Virus genome (UHGV): UHGV-1370141
From: a virus
Direction: 5' to 3' (one strand)
Length of the DNA: 64,000 nucleotides
The notes under the pieces are model-generated. The model did not search any database, was not told where the DNA came from, and saw nothing but the letters and a program-made list of their open reading frames with translations. Below, in pieces: positions 3,296 to 58,048 of this stretch. The first letter of the stretch is position 1. The number at the start of each line of letters is the position of its first letter. Position numbers and translations under genes: made by a program.

Positions 3296-3333
3296 AGCCT
3301 GAGACCCCGGTGGGTCTCAGGCTAGTTTATTTT
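3296..3333. terminator. bidirectional intrinsic terminator (stem agcctgagaccc / gggtctcaggct, loop cggt, A-run before and T-run after)
   Basis: 12-bp perfect stem between convergent genes 1909..3285 (+) and 3342..3581 (-). Confidence 0.6.
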
Positions 3334-3341
3334 AAAAGGCT

Positions 3342-3581
3342 TCAATGGGCCCCGGATACCGCTAATAGGTGGATGGTGTACACCAAGTTTAGAGCGTAAG
3401 TCGTTGATGTCCCTGCCACCATTAATCCGAATACTGCTACCGCCTGCGCATACCGCGTCGTACGATGACACACACCGTGCGATGCACCGTATCGTTCTAT
3501 CGATTGGTAACTGTGTCTAATCATTTTGTACGTCGCGATCCACGAAAAGAACACGAGCAAATAGTAAATTGGAGCCATCAC
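3342..3581 (-). CDS. small membrane protein (79 aa, two hydrophobic segments), translationally coupled to the upstream terminase gene
   Basis: ATG overlaps terminase stop (ATGA); hydrophobic stretches APIYYLLVFFSWIATY and AVAVFGLMVAGTSTTYALNLV. Confidence 0.45.
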   Translation of the reverse strand: MMAPIYYLLVFFSWIATYKMIRHSYQSIERYGASHGVCHRTTRYAQAVAVFGLMVAGTSTTYALNLVYTIHLLAVSGAH

Positions 3582-5686
3582 TTCATCCTCTGGCGTTGGA
3601 GAAGCTCTCTCAAGCTTTCCATTGACGCCACGTTTTGTGTATCAGTGTTAAGTTGAGAGATGAGGGCCTGAAGTCGGTTACGAGCGGCCATTGCTTGAAC
3701 CGGGTCGAGTAACCCGTGAGTCGTTCTCACTAACTGCTCAATTTCCCCCATCAGTTTTTGCTGTCGCGCTTCCTCTTCGAGCTGTAACTCTTCGTCCACC
3801 CCTTCCCGGTTTTCTGCCAAGTTACGATTACGCATCATCAATCGGCTGTTGTTGATCTCGTAATGTCCTAAGTTATTCCCAAGTAGCAATAACCACATCG
3901 CAAGTAACCAAGAAATCACAAGGTCATCGTGACCGGATGCTTTGTGGTCGATACGACCATTTTTCTCCACGAGGTTAAGAATTTGGTCGATGAGCTCTCC
4001 ACAACGGAGTTTATCGGCAGACAAGCGCAACGCGGTGGTGAATACCTCACCGTACAGTTTACGACGTTTCTCCTGGTCGGTTGAGAACCCGATGTATTTG
4101 CGGAATTTATTCCAGAATTTCTCTGCGCTCCCCACTGGGCCACGGTGATACTCTTTGTAGAGATCGTCCGTACGCGAGTAGTCCTGGGTGATTCGCACAA
4201 ACAAACGACGGTGTAAATCGGGTACCCGTGATTGCAATTGCAGGATAACCGCATCTGCAACGGATGAGCCTGTTGAGCGTCGTTCCAGAATCAGTACCGT
4301 GTTCGGATATCGCACCATAAAATCCGCTAAATGGATCGCGAACGAAATAACGTTGGATTCATTAACGGTAAGCTTACCGGCGTACTCGGCCGTGACTGAG
4401 TTGACGATGGACATGGCGATCGCATCTCGACCTACGGCTTCGGAGGTATCCAAACCGATGACATGACGATCTTTGAGTTTCATCATCATTTCTTCTTCGG
4501 TGTAGTACCAGTCGGTAACGTAGTTTTGTGGCGAGATATCTTTGAACACTGCACGCATTCGTGAAGCATTCATACGATCTGCATCTTCCGCTGAGAACGG
4601 CTTGTTCAGACCACCGGTCGTCCATTCGCCACCGAAGTCACGACGGATCTGGTCAGGGGTACCTTTGGCGTTCGCAATCATTGCCGCTAACTGTTCATCT
4701 GTGGTCCCGAGCTGACGGTGGTTGTACTTCACGTAGAACATGATACGTGGGACTTCTGCCGTGGAGTTAGAACGGATGATGTCAATGAGCTGTTTACGGG
4801 TTGGAATGTCGATATAGCGCTCATCCCACATAATCCCTGACGTCATCAGCTCGTACATGTACTTGCCTTCTTCCGTCGCTAAGTCACCAGGGGTTGTTGC
4901 GAATACGTTACCGTAAGGAACACCTTCCGCTTCGTTAATACGACGTGCCGCTGTACCGGATGCCAGCGCTGCCGGTAGAATGTGGTGTACGTTTTTGGTA
5001 AAGGGGCCTTCGTCCGAGAACAGACGACCAGCAGTAAGTCCACGACCGATACCGTTAGCGGACTCTGGGTCGTTTTGGCCGATACCTGTAATCAGTTTAT
5101 TACCCTGAGCTAAACACGCAAAGGTTTCTCGGTTATCTGGGTCATCAGGATGCGCTGGCCAGAGGTAACTCGGTAAACCGTTACGAAGTTGTTTCAGTTT
5201 GTTGATAGTTTCTTCACGCAGTGCCGGGCCTTTTGTGATAAGAATTGTTCGGGAGTTTTCTAAGAAACGAATCAACCACAGCAGTAAACCACTCATCCCG
5301 ACGGTTTTACCGTGCTGACGCAAGAACTCGACAGCAACGTCGATGTTGTTAAAGAAAATCCAGTACATCGAGAAGTTACCACGGTCGATACGGAACGGGG
5401 AACCGTACTTCATACCGTCCGCAGGCACCCTGACACATTCCCTGAACCAGTACCACGGGTTCTCAGCACATTCGATGGCGATGTATGCCTTCATCTGTTC
5501 TGAAAGGTTTTCATCGAACGGGTCTACGCCCTGCAACAGTGGGTTATGCAACGCCAGGTGAATATACCAGTGTTTGACACCCAGTTTTTTCAGTAAGTTA
5601 GCAAACTTGATAAAGGATTTGTTTGTTGTTTTATCGTCAACAATAGCGCCTGGATAATAACGCCAGTCCGATTCACGTAGTATCAT
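3578..5686 (-). CDS. terminase large subunit (ATPase plus nuclease), 702 aa
   Basis: Walker A-like FLRQHGKT; C-terminal RNase H-like nuclease motifs VIGLDTSEAVGRD and GHDDLVISW; ATG with AGGAG SD. Confidence 0.6.
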   Translation of the reverse strand: MILRESDWRYYPGAIVDDKTTNKSFIKFANLLKKLGVKHWYIHLALHNPLLQGVDPFDENLSEQMKAYIAIECAENPWYWFRECVRVPADGMKYGSPFRIDRGNFSMYWIFFNNIDVAVEFLRQHGKTVGMSGLLLWLIRFLENSRTILITKGPALREETINKLKQLRNGLPSYLWPAHPDDPDNRETFACLAQGNKLITGIGQNDPESANGIGRGLTAGRLFSDEGPFTKNVHHILPAALASGTAARRINEAEGVPYGNVFATTPGDLATEEGKYMYELMTSGIMWDERYIDIPTRKQLIDIIRSNSTAEVPRIMFYVKYNHRQLGTTDEQLAAMIANAKGTPDQIRRDFGGEWTTGGLNKPFSAEDADRMNASRMRAVFKDISPQNYVTDWYYTEEEMMMKLKDRHVIGLDTSEAVGRDAIAMSIVNSVTAEYAGKLTVNESNVISFAIHLADFMVRYPNTVLILERRSTGSSVADAVILQLQSRVPDLHRRLFVRITQDYSRTDDLYKEYHRGPVGSAEKFWNKFRKYIGFSTDQEKRRKLYGEVFTTALRLSADKLRCGELIDQILNLVEKNGRIDHKASGHDDLVISWLLAMWLLLLGNNLGHYEINNSRLMMRNRNLAENREGVDEELQLEEEARQQKLMGEIEQLVRTTHGLLDPVQAMAARNRLQALISQLNTDTQNVASMESLRELLQRQRMK

Positions 5687-50207: not shown

Positions 50208-50507
50208 TTAACGATTCTTGGTCGGAAGAAGAAGACGGCGTTTGTGCCAGAATTCAAAGTAGGTCTCTACCCACTCGGTGACTTCTTCCGATTTTTCAGG
50301 ATAGGGGTTCTCAATAGACTCGAAACGACGTTTGTTGCGCTCGTCGATTTCTAATTCCATCACGCGCTTACCGTTAGGTAAAGAGGTCACGCTAAGAATC
50401 TTACCTACTTGAATAGGCTTACCTTCTTTGTCTTTTTTCACCGGGGTAAGATAGATTTCCGGTTCCAGACGAGGCGTGGTGTTTCGAGTCAGTAATTTGA
50501 TTTTCAT
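50208..50507 (-). CDS. hypothetical protein (99 aa)
   Basis: ORF. Confidence 0.45.
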   Translation of the reverse strand: MKIKLLTRNTTPRLEPEIYLTPVKKDKEGKPIQVGKILSVTSLPNGKRVMELEIDERNKRRFESIENPYPEKSEEVTEWVETYFEFWHKRRLLLPTKNR

Positions 50508-50604
50508 CGAGCTTTACCTTTATGAGATAATCTCGGTCATAAGTTCAGGATGAACTGTAAAAAGACTTTACTATGTAACCCTGACTTATAATCCGAGGTT
50601 TTAA

Positions 50605-51360
50605 ATGAACGTAAATCCACTTGCAGCGTTAACTAGCTTTGCCGCTAAAGCGTCTGCAATCTTACCCAAAGGGTTCAGTGGCCCTCAACAAGAGATTGCA
50701 TTAACCACTTACGACGACATGTCAGACGTTTCCAAGTGGATGCAACAGGAAAAATTCTTACACTTTGCAGGCATGTTGGTTATTGTACCGCCAGGCTTCA
50801 ATACCTACGTAATGGATCACATTAACCGCTTAGAATCGGTGTGGAGTTCATTACAGAAGATCTACGACGGTGTCCTTTTACCTGTTGAGTTGCAACTTTC
50901 CGCCCTTACACATGATGTGGGCGTACTGTCATTACCTATCGGTTTCCGTTATAAAAACGTTAACATTCCGTTACGTAACGTGAATCCGAAAGACCTGGTT
51001 AACCAGTTGGCTAAGTCTTACACCAACAACGTTATTGACCAGCGTCCGATTGAGAAAACGTATCACAGTGCTACGGAGATCGATATTGCGTTTAACCGTG
51101 CAAAAGCACTGAACGTTGAAATCACGAAGAAACTTCGTACGAACATCGATAAATCCATCGAGTCCATCAAAGCCTCTGCAACGATTCTGTCTGAACAAAA
51201 CATTCATCCTAACGTGGCAAAAGAACTGACAGCGATGTTAGACTTTGCATCCGATTGGGTTGAACTGTTTGGTTTGTTCATGAAACAGGTGAACGAATTG
51301 ATTGAATGTCTGAACGTGACGGCTGAACGCCTGAAAGCGCTGAAGGCAAACAAAAAATAA
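50605..51360 (+). CDS. hypothetical protein (251 aa)
   Basis: ATG with GAGG SD; terminator downstream. Confidence 0.55.
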   Translation: MNVNPLAALTSFAAKASAILPKGFSGPQQEIALTTYDDMSDVSKWMQQEKFLHFAGMLVIVPPGFNTYVMDHINRLESVWSSLQKIYDGVLLPVELQLSALTHDVGVLSLPIGFRYKNVNIPLRNVNPKDLVNQLAKSYTNNVIDQRPIEKTYHSATEIDIAFNRAKALNVEITKKLRTNIDKSIESIKASATILSEQNIHPNVAKELTAMLDFASDWVELFGLFMKQVNELIECLNVTAERLKALKANKK

Positions 51361-51372
51361 AAAGTAAAAGCT

Positions 51373-51410
51373 ACCCCTAGACCACAAGGTCTAGGGGTAA
51401 TCTTTATTTT
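51373..51410. terminator. bidirectional intrinsic terminator (stem acccctagacc / ggtctaggggt, loop acaa)
   Basis: 11-bp perfect stem with flanking A- and T-runs between convergent genes. Confidence 0.65.
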
Positions 51411-51414
51411 CACG

Positions 51415-52299
51415 CTAAAAACCAGATATAAAGGTGGGCGCAATCCATCGCCACTCCTGCCAGCGTGGTCCTGTCATTGGCCCACACCAGACCCGTTTCC
51501 AATGTGCCCTGCGTATGTGCGCTGCGCGATGAGGCGTTAAACAGATTCTCCTGCCTTCCCTGCGTTGTTTTTCTAAGTCTTCGCGTTGTACTGGACTTAC
51601 GTCAACAACGACAGGTTCTCTCCGTGGGAGGATTTCTGTATCAGGTACGTAACGTGTCGTTCTACCACGGTATTCCCGTCTCTCGCGTTCCGATTTCTTC
51701 ACCCGCGAGGAAAGATATAAACCGATATGTACCTCATCCAGAAGTTCCTCGTCCTTTGACTCGTTAGCAAAGTAAGGCTCTAAACTAACAAAGTCATCTG
51801 CCTTTCTGTTGAACCGATAAATCTTGGTTGTCCAACAGTGCCGCTGATTTATCTCCACCCATCGTAAAACGAACAATACTTCTTCACCTTCGAATTTACG
51901 ACGACCGATAAAGAGCGTAGCAGGAAGTTCGTTAATCTTGACAGTCACGGAAAAGGTGAATGAAGGGATGGCTTCAATCCACGCGTACGGAATATCCGTT
52001 AAACGTTCTGTGTCTGCAAGTAATCCCATCAGCTCTTTATCAGAGATAATTTCAATACCTGCGTATTGCCAACCCAAACCTAACGACTGACGAATAGAAT
52101 ACGGCACCTGTTTGGTGGTGCCGAACTCACGGTACGTTGGGTCGTTAACGGGCAGAAAGGTTACGGGAAGTTGTCTCTTGTGTTCCCTGACAAACGTTAG
52201 AAAACGATCTTCTTTCAGACCAAACAAGTCTTTGTGTGCAGTCTCTATAGCTTCACTAATACGTCGAAGCGTGTCTCCATAAATTCTGCGTCTTAACAT
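51415..52299 (-). CDS. hypothetical protein, member of tandem paralog pair (294 aa from ATG at 52299; track ORF extends to 52422)
   Basis: ATG with AGGAG SD 7 nt upstream; C-terminal motif AAHIRRAHWKRVWCGP...WIAPTF shared with 52310..53242. Confidence 0.55.
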   Translation of the reverse strand: MLRRRIYGDTLRRISEAIETAHKDLFGLKEDRFLTFVREHKRQLPVTFLPVNDPTYREFGTTKQVPYSIRQSLGLGWQYAGIEIISDKELMGLLADTERLTDIPYAWIEAIPSFTFSVTVKINELPATLFIGRRKFEGEEVLFVLRWVEINQRHCWTTKIYRFNRKADDFVSLEPYFANESKDEELLDEVHIGLYLSSRVKKSERERREYRGRTTRYVPDTEILPRREPVVVDVSPVQREDLEKQRREGRRICLTPHRAAHIRRAHWKRVWCGPMTGPRWQEWRWIAPTFISGF

Positions 52300-52309
52300 T
52301 ATAATTCTC

Positions 52310-53242
52310 CTAGTCTTGCGTGTGGGGTACGTAGCCTCGGACAAATGTCGGTGGAATCCAGCAAAGTTTTCTTTTTCTTTCACCGTTTCTTGGGCCAACC
52401 CAGTATCTACGCCAGTGTGCACGACGTATATGTGCAGCTTTGGCGTGTTTGATACCCTGCATGGCTTTCAAGTCGGTGTTAAATCCTTTTAGATATTTTA
52501 CTTGTCCTGGTGTGATATCAACCTTAACATCACGTTCTCGCGGTTTAACGTCGTAACTAATACTACCGTTCTTTTTGATTTCCCTGAACTTAATATCATT
52601 AAAAGACTCCCTGTAATTAGGCGGGATTAGCGTGCACAGAAATATCATCGAAGTGGCGGCTTTGGCCAGAGATAACCATAACATCTTCTCTTCTTCGGTC
52701 TGTACGCCAGTTGTATAATCAATTTCAACAAGCCCGTTTCCTACACTACGAAGCTCTAACGAACAAGTGGCAATTGTGGTAACTCCTTCTGTTAACCCGT
52801 AATCAGTATTTGTAGCGATTATAATAAACCTTTTCTTCCCATTTTTTCGATAGCCGAGAAAGAAAGTCTCATCCTCTTTACCTACGTCGATTGCCACAGT
52901 CCATGCGGGTATAAAGTCCAACCATTCTTCAGGGAATTTACTGGGCATCTCAGTCTCGAAAACAAGTTCTCTAAGTGCTTGGTTGGATATTAAGGAAACC
53001 CCGCCATATAGCCACCCGATTGCCAACGTTTGTGCGTGAAGGGAACGTGGATCTTTGAGACCTAACTCAGTGTCGTAGGGTATAAAGGAATTGGTTAAAT
53101 GGTTACGATTCTTTTTTATCCATTTCGAGACAGGATTTTCTTTTGTTTGGTTTTCTTCCATGACATTTTCTAGATGCTGACTCCCCATTTGTCTAAGACA
53201 GTCTTTAATACCTTTTACTTTTTTACTTTTGTACAAATACAT
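52310..53242 (-). CDS. hypothetical protein, member of tandem paralog pair (310 aa)
   Basis: ATG with AGGAG SD; C-terminal AAHIRRAHWRRYWVGP...WIPPTF and internal GWLYGGVSLIS blocks shared with 51415..52299. Confidence 0.55.
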   Translation of the reverse strand: MYLYKSKKVKGIKDCLRQMGSQHLENVMEENQTKENPVSKWIKKNRNHLTNSFIPYDTELGLKDPRSLHAQTLAIGWLYGGVSLISNQALRELVFETEMPSKFPEEWLDFIPAWTVAIDVGKEDETFFLGYRKNGKKRFIIIATNTDYGLTEGVTTIATCSLELRSVGNGLVEIDYTTGVQTEEEKMLWLSLAKAATSMIFLCTLIPPNYRESFNDIKFREIKKNGSISYDVKPRERDVKVDITPGQVKYLKGFNTDLKAMQGIKHAKAAHIRRAHWRRYWVGPRNGERKRKLCWIPPTFVRGYVPHTQD

Positions 53243-53260
53243 GGTATATGCTCCTAAAAT

Positions 53261-53295
53261 GGTTAAAATAAAGCAACCCTAGCCGAAGCTAGGGT
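53261..53295 (-). terminator. intrinsic terminator (stem accctagc / gctagggt, loop cgaa, U-run on minus strand)
   Basis: 8-bp stem downstream of 53301..53789. Confidence 0.5.
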
Positions 53296-53300
53296 GTATG

Positions 53301-53789
53301 TTAGTCGATCTTGACGTAATTTGGGTAATTAGCTTTCAACCACTCCCACAGGTGTAATGCGAGCATACCTTGGTCGTAGCTAATAATATCCACAATACCG
53401 TGTGAGTGTGCTTCATTACCCCAAATTTGACTATAGAAACGACGCCACTCACCTTCTGCATATGGTGGTACAATTGCTGGGATAAAACCGTTATGGTATT
53501 CGTTAATTAGTGATTGTAAAGTTTCAATACGGATTCCGTATAACCGTCTATCGATGAACGATTTTGTGATCCCACCAAAGAAACCAACAAAGAAATCATC
53601 CAGACTCGTTATAAGTCGGGCTCTGTAATTATTTTCGATGTAGTCGGCGGCAACGCCAGCCATCCACGGAGTATCGACGACCATTGGCGCGAGTTTATTT
53701 CTGATCGTGGCATGTACACGGTCGGTATGGTTGAGGAATTCATGAATAATGTCGGAATTTTTCAAAGCGATAATTTGATTTAAATTCAT
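53301..53789 (-). CDS. hypothetical protein (162 aa)
   Basis: ORF. Confidence 0.5.
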   Translation of the reverse strand: MNLNQIIALKNSDIIHEFLNHTDRVHATIRNKLAPMVVDTPWMAGVAADYIENNYRARLITSLDDFFVGFFGGITKSFIDRRLYGIRIETLQSLINEYHNGFIPAIVPPYAEGEWRRFYSQIWGNEAHSHGIVDIISYDQGMLALHLWEWLKANYPNYVKID

Positions 53790-53806
53790 GTTTTAATCTC
53801 CTTAAG

Positions 53807-54355
53807 TTAAACGGTGCTTGTCTTAGCGGGTTGAAGTTTTGATGATAAATAAATAATCTCGGAACTACACACCCTTTTTACTAATGCCAAATTTTCAATA
53901 AAGATATCTCGAATGCGAGACGTGGTTTCATTAGTAAGAATATCGCTCCAGCATACAGTATCGACTATGTTGGTTTCAGCATTCTGTTGCTGTATAACAC
54001 CAACGTAAATCGTTTCGAAATCGTCTGGGGAATGGTTTTGTAAATAGTGTGCTGCGTCGACGAACGCCTTTTCCAGTATTGATTCTACCGTAGTGTCTGG
54101 GTCGGTTACACGAACCAGGTAGGGTCGCTCTATCACTGCGTGAATCCGCCTTTCTAACACGTCTACCAGAAAATCCACCATCGCTTTAGCATCTAAGATT
54201 ACCACGGTTTCCCCGTTGTTCTCTTTTGTTAGCTTTCTCTCGTACACCGCTATCGCGTCGTGCAGTTCTAACGTCACTTTATTTCGCATTTCGGTAAGTA
54301 TTTTATTTAGCCTGTCTCGTGACGAGCTCAGAGAGAAATCAATAAGTAATTTCAT
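53807..54355 (-). CDS. hypothetical protein (182 aa)
   Basis: ORF. Confidence 0.5.
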   Translation of the reverse strand: MKLLIDFSLSSSRDRLNKILTEMRNKVTLELHDAIAVYERKLTKENNGETVVILDAKAMVDFLVDVLERRIHAVIERPYLVRVTDPDTTVESILEKAFVDAAHYLQNHSPDDFETIYVGVIQQQNAETNIVDTVCWSDILTNETTSRIRDIFIENLALVKRVCSSEIIYLSSKLQPAKTSTV

Positions 54356-54356
54356 G

Positions 54357-55094
54357 TTAATAATCCTGATAAATGACGTCAGCCCGGTCTTTACGTAACT
54401 GGCAGTATGTCACATCCGCACCGTTAGGGATTCGCACACCGGTGTCTTCAAGATAGATAACACCAGTCTGATTACAGAAATAAAAAGACCACAAATACGG
54501 ATCGCCATGACACCCATTTTCGTAATGATTGAACGGCCAATAACCACGATGTAATTCATCAAAATCATCGCGCTCGATACCGTAAGCAATCATTTCTTTT
54601 TCCCACAACTTACATTCAGCGTCATAAGTCGAATACCAGAAACCAACGAGATTCTTTGTTCGTTTGACGTTCATTAAGTCGTTATAAATGGGAAAGAGCG
54701 CTTTATTGTAATTTTCTAACATGTTCGAGGAAAGTAGAAAATTCACGTAGTATTCTAGCCATTGATAAACGGCCTCCCAGACATCTTCAGAGGAGAAATG
54801 TTCGAATACGGCGTCATCACAATCGTAGTTATCGAAGATCGCTGAGAGATCTATTATGACGTCACGAAGGTCAAAGTTTCGGTTGGTGTTGACAGCGTCA
54901 ATAACCTCAGAGACGAGGTGGGTAAAGACATTTGTACAGGCTGATTGTGCGGTGTAAAAGAATTCTCCTTGGACAGTTGACCATTTTGGGTCTTTCAGGC
55001 GTTCATTGAAGTATTGTGGCCAAATTTTATAAAAGAGTCCCTCGAACAACGAGGGATTAATACGTTGTAATTGAGGGACATAAACTTTCAACAT
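54357..55094 (-). CDS. hypothetical protein (245 aa)
   Basis: ATG with GGAG SD; AT-rich motif 30 nt upstream. Confidence 0.55.
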   Translation of the reverse strand: MLKVYVPQLQRINPSLFEGLFYKIWPQYFNERLKDPKWSTVQGEFFYTAQSACTNVFTHLVSEVIDAVNTNRNFDLRDVIIDLSAIFDNYDCDDAVFEHFSSEDVWEAVYQWLEYYVNFLLSSNMLENYNKALFPIYNDLMNVKRTKNLVGFWYSTYDAECKLWEKEMIAYGIERDDFDELHRGYWPFNHYENGCHGDPYLWSFYFCNQTGVIYLEDTGVRIPNGADVTYCQLRKDRADVIYQDY

Positions 55095-55136: not shown

Positions 55137-55803
55137 TAAGAAAGTTTTTAGCGAAATAGGGATCGATGTGAAACGCTTTCACGAGAGAATCATAGCCGGA
55201 GTGAATCTGATCGGAGTTGAGCAGGAAACGGTCTAGATCGTGAGGCAATATCCAGGCGTCACCTTGTTTGAAAATAGTGTGACCTACAGTTTCTGGAGAA
55301 AATCGAATTTCTTCCGGGAAGGGATACGTTTGCTTCAAATCGAGGTCGGTGGGTTTTAAGGTAACTAAACGAACGGGTCGTTTACTGGCCACCTCCTTAA
55401 CGAATTGGTTACGATCAAACCAGATAATCTTTTCAGGGTAGCTTTCCAGCTCACTCCAGACCTTGTTAATCACCAGATTAAAGTTCTGTTGCAGTTCCCC
55501 GGATTGGTTAGCGTAACCTAAGCACTCTTCTACCAAAGCTGGATTACCGTAAGTGTTAGTAATAACCTGTGCAATCACACGTTGTGGGAAACAATCTTTC
55601 GGTATATCACAACCTGCATTGTACAATGCAATGATTTCCCACAATGAGCGTAAGGCAAGTTCAAGTGACACTTCCCCGAGTGTATAGTGGTCGTCAGAAT
55701 AGGGGGCTTTAAAGCCCCACTGCTGACGCGCAATTGCTGAAAAGCGTATCTGGATATAACTCGGTGCCATCGATAACGCTTGACTAAAAACAATCAGCAT
55801 CAA
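55132..55803 (-). CDS. hypothetical protein (223 aa)
   Basis: ORF, 4-nt overlap with upstream gene. Confidence 0.5.
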   Translation of the reverse strand: MMLIVFSQALSMAPSYIQIRFSAIARQQWGFKAPYSDDHYTLGEVSLELALRSLWEIIALYNAGCDIPKDCFPQRVIAQVITNTYGNPALVEECLGYANQSGELQQNFNLVINKVWSELESYPEKIIWFDRNQFVKEVASKRPVRLVTLKPTDLDLKQTYPFPEEIRFSPETVGHTIFKQGDAWILPHDLDRFLLNSDQIHSGYDSLVKAFHIDPYFAKNFLR

Positions 55804-57311
55804 AGTTCCTTATCGGTCAATATTCGTTTGTTTGAATAATAACCACACCATAGACCATGATACTTCTCACCGATATACACTAACGCGTATTCAATATACT
55901 GACGTTCTGGACGACGTACGGCAATGTAGAATCGCCCGTTTGGTTCTTTGATACGGTTGATTTCCGTACGCGTCGGTATGTCGATAGCACGCGTAAGAAT
56001 AGTTTTAACGTCAACCTTCCCGTTAGGGATTTTAATGGAAACGTCAAACCCTTTATCCACGTTTCGGTAAAAGTCTTTGGTGGGTTTACCTTTTTCGTCA
56101 TAAAGCAAATCGGTAATATCATTTAAGACAACGTTCGATTTGCCTTCCAAACAGTCACGCAGCCACTCTGCCAGTTCATCACGAATGGTTACGCAGCGGT
56201 ATGACAATAACGCGGGACGCAGAATACGACTGATAGACAAGTCTTCGTACATCCACAGGTTTTTGTCTTCGCTAAAGTGCATTTTGTCAACCGGGATACC
56301 GTTAGCCGCAGCTTCCGCAAACTTCTTACGTTTTACGAACAGGTTGAACACAACAGCGATAGGGTCAAACTGACGCAAACGTGGTACGCCCTCCCAGGCT
56401 TTAGCAGCGTGGGCGTTAACCAAATCATAAACGTTCGTCCACGGCTCACGTGTAAACATCACACAAAACTGCGCATCAGGGATGTATTTTCCGACGAAGA
56501 CAATATCGTCCTTCTGTTTTGCGTGGTTACCCCCGAACATGTAATAGAGATTTTCACCGTTTACTTTAACTGTAGGGTGTTGCTCATTTACCATCGGGTA
56601 GCAGAACTTGGTTACGCAAATATCAGGAAACGCGGCAACGTTAACGCCTTCACTGACGATTTCTTCCTGCTGTTCTTCCGGGATTTCGTCTGCTGACCAG
56701 TACGCCTGATAATCTAAACCTTCTCCGTGCGCAGAGATGGATGATCCTTTTCGTGCCAGCCCGTCAGCTCGTTCGTTACCGTAGTGACCAGAGTGTCCTT
56801 TGATTTTAAGAACACGAATCCCTTTTCCTTCTTTCTTCAGACGTTTCTTAATTTCCCACATCCGTTGAACCAGCTCAAGGTTCGCGATAGGGGTTCCATC
56901 AGCCCGTCGCCAGTCCCGCTTAGCCCAACCGTCAATCCAATCGTTAAACGTATTCACAACGTAAGACGCGTCGATATAGATAACGTAGTTTTTTGCAACG
57001 AACGGTGCTTTTTCGAAAACGGTTAAAAAAGCAACAATCTCTGCAACATCGGAGTGGTGGTGTTTCGGTACCGGAATAACACAGTCTACGAACTCAACAG
57101 AGTCCGGTAGCGCAGGAAGTTTTTCCTCTTTGTTAATCTGGCGATAACCAGAGGTCGTAATCCCTTCGGGAATGGTAGGGTGGCGATAAACGCCACCGTC
57201 AACAATCTCTTCCTTGTTAAACAGGTAGCCGTGAATCCCACCGCCTGTTCCCATCGGTGAGGTTAAATGGCTACCGTCGGTATAAAGTACAGCAACATCA
57301 ACGTTCTTCAT
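55800..57311 (-). CDS. ribonuclease H domain protein (N-terminal RNase HI-like domain plus about 300-aa C-terminal domain of unknown function), 503 aa
   Basis: RNase HI motifs LYTDGS, EIVAF, YIDASY, KIKGHSGHYGNERADGLAR. Confidence 0.8.
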   Translation of the reverse strand: MKNVDVAVLYTDGSHLTSPMGTGGGIHGYLFNKEEIVDGGVYRHPTIPEGITTSGYRQINKEEKLPALPDSVEFVDCVIPVPKHHHSDVAEIVAFLTVFEKAPFVAKNYVIYIDASYVVNTFNDWIDGWAKRDWRRADGTPIANLELVQRMWEIKKRLKKEGKGIRVLKIKGHSGHYGNERADGLARKGSSISAHGEGLDYQAYWSADEIPEEQQEEIVSEGVNVAAFPDICVTKFCYPMVNEQHPTVKVNGENLYYMFGGNHAKQKDDIVFVGKYIPDAQFCVMFTREPWTNVYDLVNAHAAKAWEGVPRLRQFDPIAVVFNLFVKRKKFAEAAANGIPVDKMHFSEDKNLWMYEDLSISRILRPALLSYRCVTIRDELAEWLRDCLEGKSNVVLNDITDLLYDEKGKPTKDFYRNVDKGFDVSIKIPNGKVDVKTILTRAIDIPTRTEINRIKEPNGRFYIAVRRPERQYIEYALVYIGEKYHGLWCGYYSNKRILTDKEL

Positions 57312-57313
57312 TC

Positions 57314-58048
57314 TTAATCCCTGGTTAACTGATCACGAATCTGTGGTGGAATATACTCACCGGTTTTCAGTTCTTCGTGACAGGCTTTAGCACGTTCGTA
57401 CCCATACTCGCGAGTAATCAGTGCAAGGTGATAAATACGTGCGGTGGTATAAGCTTCTTTCGCGGCATCCCACAAAGCATGGTGTTCAAATGCCGGTTTA
57501 CCCCGCGTCCAGTAAACTTGCTCAACGGTCAAGTCAGGCTCAAAACCAAACGCCAGCGCTAAACGTTCTGCGGTGCGGTCACTGTCTAACGCGCTGAACT
57601 TACGGAATTTACCTGGAGGGACGTCACATTGTGCGAACGCGTTCATGAAAATCGGCGAATCGAAATCCGGACCACGCATGGTGATAACAAAATTGTGTTT
57701 ACCGGTGATTTCGTCTAACCACTTACGCATCGCCCACAGCGCTTCCGGCATAGGAGTTGTACCGCCCCATGCTTCCGTGTAGGCTTCACGAGACGGTGCG
57801 TATTCAGGTTCCCCTTTACCTTCCCACCATCCTACGGTCTGTGGGTCTTCGTGGAACACAGCTTTTGCTTTAGGGTCGTTAGGATCAATACGCATATACG
57901 ACGACCCCACCATTTTTAAAGTCGGTACGTCAAAGGCAACTAAGCCCGTGGTTAACAGATACGCATCAGGACGCAGTGATTTAGTTTCTGCGTCGGCACC
58001 GATTACCAACGTCGGTAAGGTGGGTTGAATCGTTTTCGGGTATGTCAT
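57314..58048 (-). CDS. DEDDh-type 3'-5' exonuclease (DnaQ-like), 244 aa
   Basis: Exo I-like GADAET, C-terminal HHALWDA (H-x4-D) motif. Confidence 0.55.
   Translation of the reverse strand: MTYPKTIQPTLPTLVIGADAETKSLRPDAYLLTTGLVAFDVPTLKMVGSSYMRIDPNDPKAKAVFHEDPQTVGWWEGKGEPEYAPSREAYTEAWGGTTPMPEALWAMRKWLDEITGKHNFVITMRGPDFDSPIFMNAFAQCDVPPGKFRKFSALDSDRTAERLALAFGFEPDLTVEQVYWTRGKPAFEHHALWDAAKEAYTTARIYHLALITREYGYERAKACHEELKTGEYIPPQIRDQLTRD

Follow-up and report, generated by a model that had tools for sequence, protein, structure and literature searches.

What are two adjacent and only distantly similar genes doing in a phage genome, and to which protein family do they belong? The question is raised by genes A and B, which lie side by side on the minus strand of the virus genome UHGV-1370141, of which we analysed a stretch of 64,000 nucleotides (nt; hereafter the window). 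An original prediction made from the sequence alone had described them as diverged tandem paralogs with a shared internal block and a basic C-terminal motif, and had recognised no family. We find that both almost certainly belong to the AcrVA2/FinQ family (Pfam PF26125, 'AcrVA2-like'). On balance, we favour the explanation that they are anciently diverged members of this family, acting as target-specific mRNA silencers in an accessory locus of a jumbo phage. The coordinates, strand and lengths first given for the pair (310 and 294 amino acids (aa)) are correct:

52310..53242, minus strand: gene A, AcrVA2/FinQ-family protein, 310 aa, 35.8 kDa, isoelectric point (pI) 9.4
51415..52299, minus strand: gene B, AcrVA2/FinQ-family paralog, 294 aa from its ATG, 35.1 kDa, pI 9.5

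Family membership was established from sequence profile, fold and the conservation of residues that have been mutationally tested in AcrVA2. When searched alone against the Protein Data Bank (PDB) with phmmer, A matched 7ci1_A through its C-terminal motif (E = 8.9e-5) and B had no match; B is tied to the family through A, with which it shares 26% identity over ~300 aligned residues (BLASTP, E = 3e-23), and through the family profile. A word-indexed homolog search found only 6 relatives; the wider family came into view with an exhaustive HMMER search, which took A, B and five close relatives as seeds and returned 641 representatives at E 1e-3 or better, mostly 300–380 aa long with the motif near the C terminus. 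The family profile and alignment were formed from 129 full-length members found in the search seeded with A and B. This 129-member profile matched 7ci1_A collinearly over residues 8–318 of 323 (E = 1.2e-46), its sole match in the PDB, and A and B share the fold of the AcrVA2 crystal structure (7CI1). PF26125 is the precomputed Pfam label on close homologs, where both genes of a syntenic 224-kb contig are called 'AcrVA2-like', and A and B both match phrog_6160, which carries no functional annotation. The genes sit in a jumbo phage, and 297 viral contigs encode relatives, consistent with a family of mobile elements.

The statement that the family was not recognised is therefore overturned by a clear match to one that is named, structurally solved and partly characterised, a match of the kind that the original prediction had itself named as telling against it. 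Among the roles that it had guessed, anti-defence fits the sole characterised family member, while a host-range function gained no support. The AcrVA2/FinQ family was already named, and its plasmid and huge-phage homologs were already reported; newly seen here are the age of the duplication and the behaviour of the initial ~205 codons of A, which recombine, are hypervariable and precede a conserved C-terminal module. As to the search libraries, a local Pfam-A hmmscan placed none of A, B, P0001, P0004 and P0006 in a family, even at E = 10, against the precomputed PF26125 label; that library probably lacks the PF26125 model, and 'no Pfam hit' from it is unreliable for recent families.

The motifs that first drew attention to the pair are present as written, at residues 76–94 and 269–304 of A and residues 76–94 and 259–294 of B:

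52961..53017, minus strand: W77...N87 block of A, residues 76–94, GWLYGGVSLISNQALRELV, equivalent to AcrVA2 W79...D89
52018..52074, minus strand: W77...D87 block of B, residues 76–94, GWQYAGIEIISDKELMGLL, equivalent to AcrVA2 W79...D89
52331..52438, minus strand: C-terminal motif of A, residues 269–304, AAHIRRAHWRRYWVGPRNGERKRKLCWIPPTFVRGY, aligned to AcrVA2 PHIRRGHWHGYWQG...RWQPAVFV
51418..51525, minus strand: C-terminal motif of B, residues 259–294, AAHIRRAHWKRVWCGPMTGPRWQEWRWIAPTFISGF, from BLASTP and the family alignment

For residue equivalences, AcrVA2 residues 8–318 were rebuilt from the HMMER alignment and then added to the family alignment; numbering of the 7ci1 chain is native + 1, as the residue types at all eight published mutation sites confirm. 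The family consensus for the Trp/Asp block is WxxxKxxYxFD, and the functionally tested positions are occupied as follows (counts from the 129-member alignment):

AcrVA2 W79: W77 in A, W77 in B; W in 116/129
AcrVA2 D89: N87 in A, D87 in B; D in 87/129, N in 6/129
AcrVA2 H286: H271 in A, H261 in B; H in 128/129
AcrVA2 R288: R273 in A, R263 in B; R in 129/129
AcrVA2 H291: H276 in A, H266 in B; H in 129/129

AcrVA2 carrying H286A, R288A or H291A still binds Cas12a but no longer down-regulates its mRNA and protein, and function is reduced by W79A and D89A (Marino et al., bioRxiv 10.1101/2022.11.29.518452). The mapping identifies the internal block GW...S(D/N) and 'AAHIRRAHW' as the two conserved functional patches of the family. 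Judged by alignment, then, the block and the C-terminal motif that were predicted to be common to both genes correspond to the tested residues W79/D89 and H286/R288/H291, respectively, and it is the basic C-terminal motif that AcrVA2 requires to down-regulate mRNA.

AcrVA2 recognises the N-terminal polypeptide of Cas12a (LSKT motif) and brings about a translation-dependent loss of cas12a mRNA that is independent of promoter and codon sequence; approximately 1,800 orthologs, carried by plasmids and 'megaphages', are typically found where the bacterium lacks Cas12a, and one homolog, FinQ, encoded by an E. coli plasmid, decreases the tra mRNA of the F plasmid (bioRxiv 10.1101/2022.11.29.518452). 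By analogy, we lean towards a mechanism of the AcrVA2 type for A and B. The variable N-terminal two-thirds would, by homology with AcrVA2, bind a specific target polypeptide, probably one emerging from the ribosome, and the conserved basic C-terminal module (H-I-R-R-A-H-W...W-I-P-P-T-F) would cause loss of the mRNA encoding the bound polypeptide, so that new synthesis of the target would be shut off. A and B would have different targets, which, to judge by the genomic context, are more likely to be components of host immunity or products of competing mobile elements. Such an inhibitor of biogenesis would be useless against pre-existing proteins and would suit those produced once infection has occurred, for example inducible defences or whatever competing phages and plasmids express early.

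How old is the pair? Pairwise alignment bore out the prediction of diverged tandem paralogs, with full-length similarity that lies far beyond chance and beyond the short motif (E = 3e-23). By neighbour joining, A and B fall into one subclade of the family together with the single-copy homologs of other jumbo phages; inside it, A is weakly nearer to the single-copy homologs than to B (67% bootstrap), and the distance between A and B is as large as that from either to those homologs. Recent tandem duplication was rejected, given the 22–26% identity of A and B and the placement of A, if anything, nearer the single-copy homologs; the same identity and tree placement indicate that the pair is old, or was built by gaining a second, diverged copy. 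The ratio of nonsynonymous to synonymous divergence (dN/dS) across related phages, a check proposed with the prediction, is 0.02–0.5 for A and B and both are intact in all relatives, indicating purifying selection on both genes.

The two halves of A have had different histories:

52628..53242, minus strand: variable N-terminal module of A, codons 1–205, the putative target-recognition part, with at least three recombining allele classes
52310..52627, minus strand: conserved C-terminal module of A, codons 206–310, beginning at the family motif IFLCT (residues 200–204), with H271-I-R273-R-A-H276-W

Compared with the related genomes L001 and L004, the window shows 95–100% nt identity on both sides, all of gene B included, and falls to 45–85% in an island at ~52,600–53,900 that holds codons 1 to ~205 of A, the upstream 162-aa gene (53301..53789) and an indel of ~525 base pairs (bp). 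Against the same two genomes, codons 216–310 of A show 94–95% nt identity (dS 0.23–0.30, dN/dS ~0.04) and codons 206–310 show 97–98% aa identity; codons 1–215 show 58–80% nt identity (dS 0.8–1.9), and codons 131–215 are the fastest at the protein level (42–45% aa identity, dN/dS ~0.4–0.5). This fast-changing segment overlaps the part of A aligned to the AcrVA2 region around E98, D129 and D195, which contacts a Cas12a peptide in structure 7CI2, a contact that is dispensable in vivo.

Across seven genomes, the N-terminal part of A falls into three classes, namely {window, L007, L008, L010}, {L001, L009} and {L004}; the window-type class is 56–60% identical at the aa level to the other two, and L001/L009 and L004 share 77%. 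The C-terminal part groups otherwise, with L004 equal to L007 (100%), the window near L001 and L009 (96%) and L008 equal to L010. These conflicting groupings show recombination with a breakpoint near codon 206, just 3' of the family-conserved (I/L)(F/Y)LC(T/S) motif (IFLCT at residues 200–204 of A). The reverse pattern is seen in L008 and L010, where the flanks are 73–82% identical to the window at the nt level and B is a 63% allele while A is ~90% identical. Gene B is 97–100% conserved among the five closest genomes. Positive selection alone was rejected as the source of the divergence of A, since dS is also saturated in codons 1–215 (0.8–1.9, compared with 0.19–0.30 in codons 216–310) and the groupings conflict; the cause is recombination of old alleles. 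An N-terminal module that recombines and is hypervariable suggests that the target of A varies between host strains or competitors.

The remainder of the island is also variable. The 162-aa gene (minus strand) has 45–65% nt identity, compared to 95–100% in the flanks, and had no match in PHROGs, Pfam or PADLOC. L001 (8931–9455) and L004 have an extra 174-aa gene that is absent from the window, and the stretch 53301–53900 does not align at all in L007, L008 and L010. By this pattern, 53301–53900 is perhaps a second slot in which accessory or anti-defence genes evolve fast.

Genes A and B are carried by a jumbo phage of Enterobacteriaceae that is Seoulvirus-like (Chimalliviridae). The window has genes for a phiKZ-type split RNA polymerase beta subunit, tail sheath, terminase, a 2,377-aa tail fibre/transglycosylase protein, a UvsX-like recombinase, an RNase H fusion and an exonuclease, and its UvsX-like protein is 81% identical to the counterpart in Salmonella phage SPN3US, whose genus Seoulvirus belongs to Chimalliviridae. 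From this family placement, the phage would be expected to form a nucleus. The closest complete genome, L004, is NZ_CP134650.1, deposited as Enterobacter ludwigii 51A:C 'plasmid unnamed1' (222,441 bp, circular, non-mobilizable). It is syntenic with the window, has flanks that are 95–100% identical and encodes jumbo-phage genes; it is evidently a Seoulvirus-like phage genome, either in a carrier state or from a contaminating phage, filed as a plasmid, and it gives the best hint of a host for the window phage (E. ludwigii). A megablast of positions 50500–54500 against 50,697 phage records gave no match, and only protein-level relatives were found there.

Within this group the locus is accessory. 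The site of A and B lies between the equivalents of SPN3US gp213 and gp214, where SPN3US has no homolog (0 copies); Escherichia phage vB_EcoM_EC001 (EC001), of the same species as SPN3US, has one copy at the exact site (MGA_211, 307 aa); and the window, L001, L004 and L007–L010 have two. A family hmmsearch of all open reading frames (ORFs) of the window found no third copy. More broadly, two copies occur within 4 kb in 12 of the best 80 viral-contig loci encoding relatives. Paired copies are thus seen repeatedly in the family and not just in the window phage, which suggests recurrent duplication. These 12 loci include independent two-copy arrangements on contigs of ~30–190 kb that are unrelated to the window phage: L065 (IMGVR_UViG_3300007802_000022) has a full pair ~1 kb apart (1226–2308 and 3305–4345), and L067 and six similar contigs (seven near-identical) have a full copy and a fragment of ~118 aa.

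The neighbours of A and B are unassigned proteins, the UvsX-like recombinase and the RNase H fusion, and none of them matched an aca-type helix-turn-helix (HTH) protein or another anti-CRISPR (Acr) such as acrVA1 in PHROGs, Pfam or PADLOC. On the minus strand upstream of the pair are the 503-aa RNase H-domain fusion (phrog_3265; 55800–57311) and a 244-aa 3'–5' exonuclease-like protein (57314–58048). The signals around the two genes are as follows:

53251..53255, minus strand: Shine-Dalgarno (SD) AGGAG of A, 8 nt 5' of the ATG, read from the sequence and kept in L001 and L004
52307..52311, minus strand: SD AGGAG of B, 7 nt 5' of the ATG, overlapping the TAG stop of A, read from the sequence
53266..53295, minus strand: terminator-like hairpin (53295–53276) with a T-rich tail, ACCCTAGC-TTCG-GCTAGGGT, between the upstream gene and A
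51371..51400, no strand assigned: bidirectional terminator hairpin with a 13-bp stem, 3' of B, common to B and the convergent plus-strand gene 50605..51360

As predicted, each gene has its own AGGAG (53255–53251 and 52311–52307). Because the SD of B overlaps the stop codon of A and stands 7 nt before the ATG of B, the two genes are likely to be translationally coupled, and with hairpins on both flanks they look like a discrete two-gene unit of operon-like anatomy. A longer, GTG-started version of B (335 aa, to 52422) was rejected, since it would overlap A by 113 nt, an SD-preceded ATG is present at 52299 and the homolog cluster P0004 is 294 aa long. In EC001 (L005), a hairpin with another stem sequence and the same TTCG loop lies upstream of MGA_211, and TTTTATTTTAA, which follows the hairpin upstream of A, is invariant across four phages, EC001 included. 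Together, the hairpin and TTTTATTTTAA could be a putative terminator-plus-promoter cassette typical of such phages.

How well does the reading of A and B as mRNA silencers stand up? Several observations weigh against it. Identity to AcrVA2 is only ~15–17%, and the transfer of mechanism therefore hinges on a handful of conserved residues, at one of which, the D89-equivalent position, the window allele of A carries N instead of D (other A alleles, P0002 and P0003, have D). Foldseek found no match in the PDB, and scanning A and B against local copies of Pfam-A, NCBIfam and PADLOC gave nothing usable. The divergence of the N-terminal module is high in dS as well as dN, which indicates exchange of old alleles and not proven positive selection. 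Lastly, the AcrVA2 mechanism is itself incompletely known and rests mainly on one preprint (bioRxiv 10.1101/2022.11.29.518452). A and B could therefore be family members that work in another mode, without translation-coupled mRNA decay, either by terminating transcription or by stoichiometric sequestration of the mature target. FinQ has historically been read as stopping tra-operon transcription at several points (Rho-independent premature termination), and AcrVA2 binds mature apo-Cas12a and, in a crystal, the Cas12a peptide 620–636. We nonetheless regard such a mode as unlikely: AcrVA2 does not inhibit mature Cas12a by binding it in vitro (bioRxiv 10.1101/2022.11.29.518452), down-regulation needs translation of the target, and A and B strictly conserve the HxR..H residues, on which mRNA loss depends and binding does not, a conservation that argues for an activity beyond binding. 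Quite improbable, in turn, is a role in the phage's own programme, whether the shut-off of host housekeeping or the timing of phage genes. The genes do lie within a block of nucleic-acid metabolism (the UvsX-like recombinase, the RNase H fusion, the exonuclease and an RNA polymerase beta fragment), and B is highly conserved among the closest genomes, but the locus is dispensable, as the copy numbers in SPN3US and EC001 attest, and a hypervariable, recombining N-terminal module is typical of conflict genes and not of core regulators.

That A and B are true anti-CRISPRs against type V-A Cas12a, as AcrVA2 is, has very little probability, even though they belong to the family and huge-phage proteins clustering with AcrVA2 were noted in 2020 and proposed as possible Acrs. 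Most members of the family are found in the absence of Cas12a; the nearest genome comes from Enterobacter, and Enterobacteriaceae are not known for type V-A systems and generally carry type I-E or I-F; and Chimalliviridae shield their DNA from DNA-targeting CRISPR-Cas. For these reasons, the targets of A and B are probably not Cas12a. Moreover, the N-terminal parts are unrelated in sequence to that of AcrVA2 beyond the fold (~16% identity), and the neighbourhood holds no aca-type HTH match. Equally far-fetched is the idea that one copy is a decaying, non-functional duplicate. The Asn of A and the low confidence with which the first 60 residues of B are modelled would fit it, but both ORFs are intact in every related contig, each has its own SD, both keep the Trp and all three C-terminal residues, and dN/dS is well below 1.

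If A and B are indeed mRNA silencers, a more specific reading can be put forward tentatively, as a possibility that we consider doubtful: the AcrVA2 scaffold in nucleus-forming-type jumbo phages might be a modular, retargetable silencer, in which an HxRxxH effector is joined at (I/L)(F/Y)LC(T/S) to swappable N-terminal cassettes, and in which A (hypervariable) and B (stable) silence two proteins other than Cas12a. The likely candidates for such targets are inducible host defence proteins and early proteins of co-infecting phages or plasmids. If true, this would be the first natural case of cassette-style reprogramming of a polypeptide-guided mRNA-decay factor, and if the N-terminal module is a swappable specificity cassette, it would offer a guide to engineering protein-specific gene silencers. 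While the family assignment removes the mystery of the two genes, the locus is still a convenient entry point to non-Cas12a targets, and it bears on the question, raised by Marino et al., of what the ~1,800 AcrVA2 homologs target in bacteria without Cas12a. The handle lies in culturable phages of Enterobacteriaceae and consists of a series of 0, 1 and 2 copies at one site (SPN3US, EC001 and the window lineage) and of near-identical phages that differ almost only in the N-terminal module of A, for which target-trapping mutations are predictable. Dozens of jumbo-phage 'hypothetical proteins' (phrog_6160) can now be annotated as AcrVA2/FinQ-family.

Among known systems, AcrVA2 of a Moraxella bovoculi prophage (PDB 7CI1/7CI2) is the structurally solved relative, at only ~15–17% identity to A and B. 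AcrVA2 is a prophage gene, whereas A and B are carried by a lytic phage of the nucleus-forming jumbo type; they are two tandem, diverged copies with no adjoining AcrVA1, their hosts probably lack Cas12a, unlike those of AcrVA2, and A has Asn at the D89-equivalent. A homolog of AcrVA2 has also been described in a Shewanella phage. FinQ, from IncI1/F-like plasmids such as R820a, has the conserved HxR motif and is an AcrVA2 homolog according to Marino et al., through whom, and not by sequence, we liken it to A and B. It acts on another mobile element and lowers specific mRNAs in bacteria without Cas12a, a precedent for non-CRISPR targets in Enterobacteriaceae; unlike A and B, it is plasmid-borne, and its target is the F tra operon. 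In a tblastn of A against 72,556 plasmids, only the Enterobacter 'plasmid' that is a phage genome matched. A further comparison is with the single-copy homologs of other jumbo phages, which belong to phrog_6160 as A and B do and are found in EC001 (MGA_211), Salmonella phages SaP7 and JN03, Erwinia phages Asesino and ChrisDB and Dickeya phage AD1. These are 21–30% identical to A over 74–90% of its length and are all annotated 'hypothetical protein'; where each of them has one copy, the window lineage has two.

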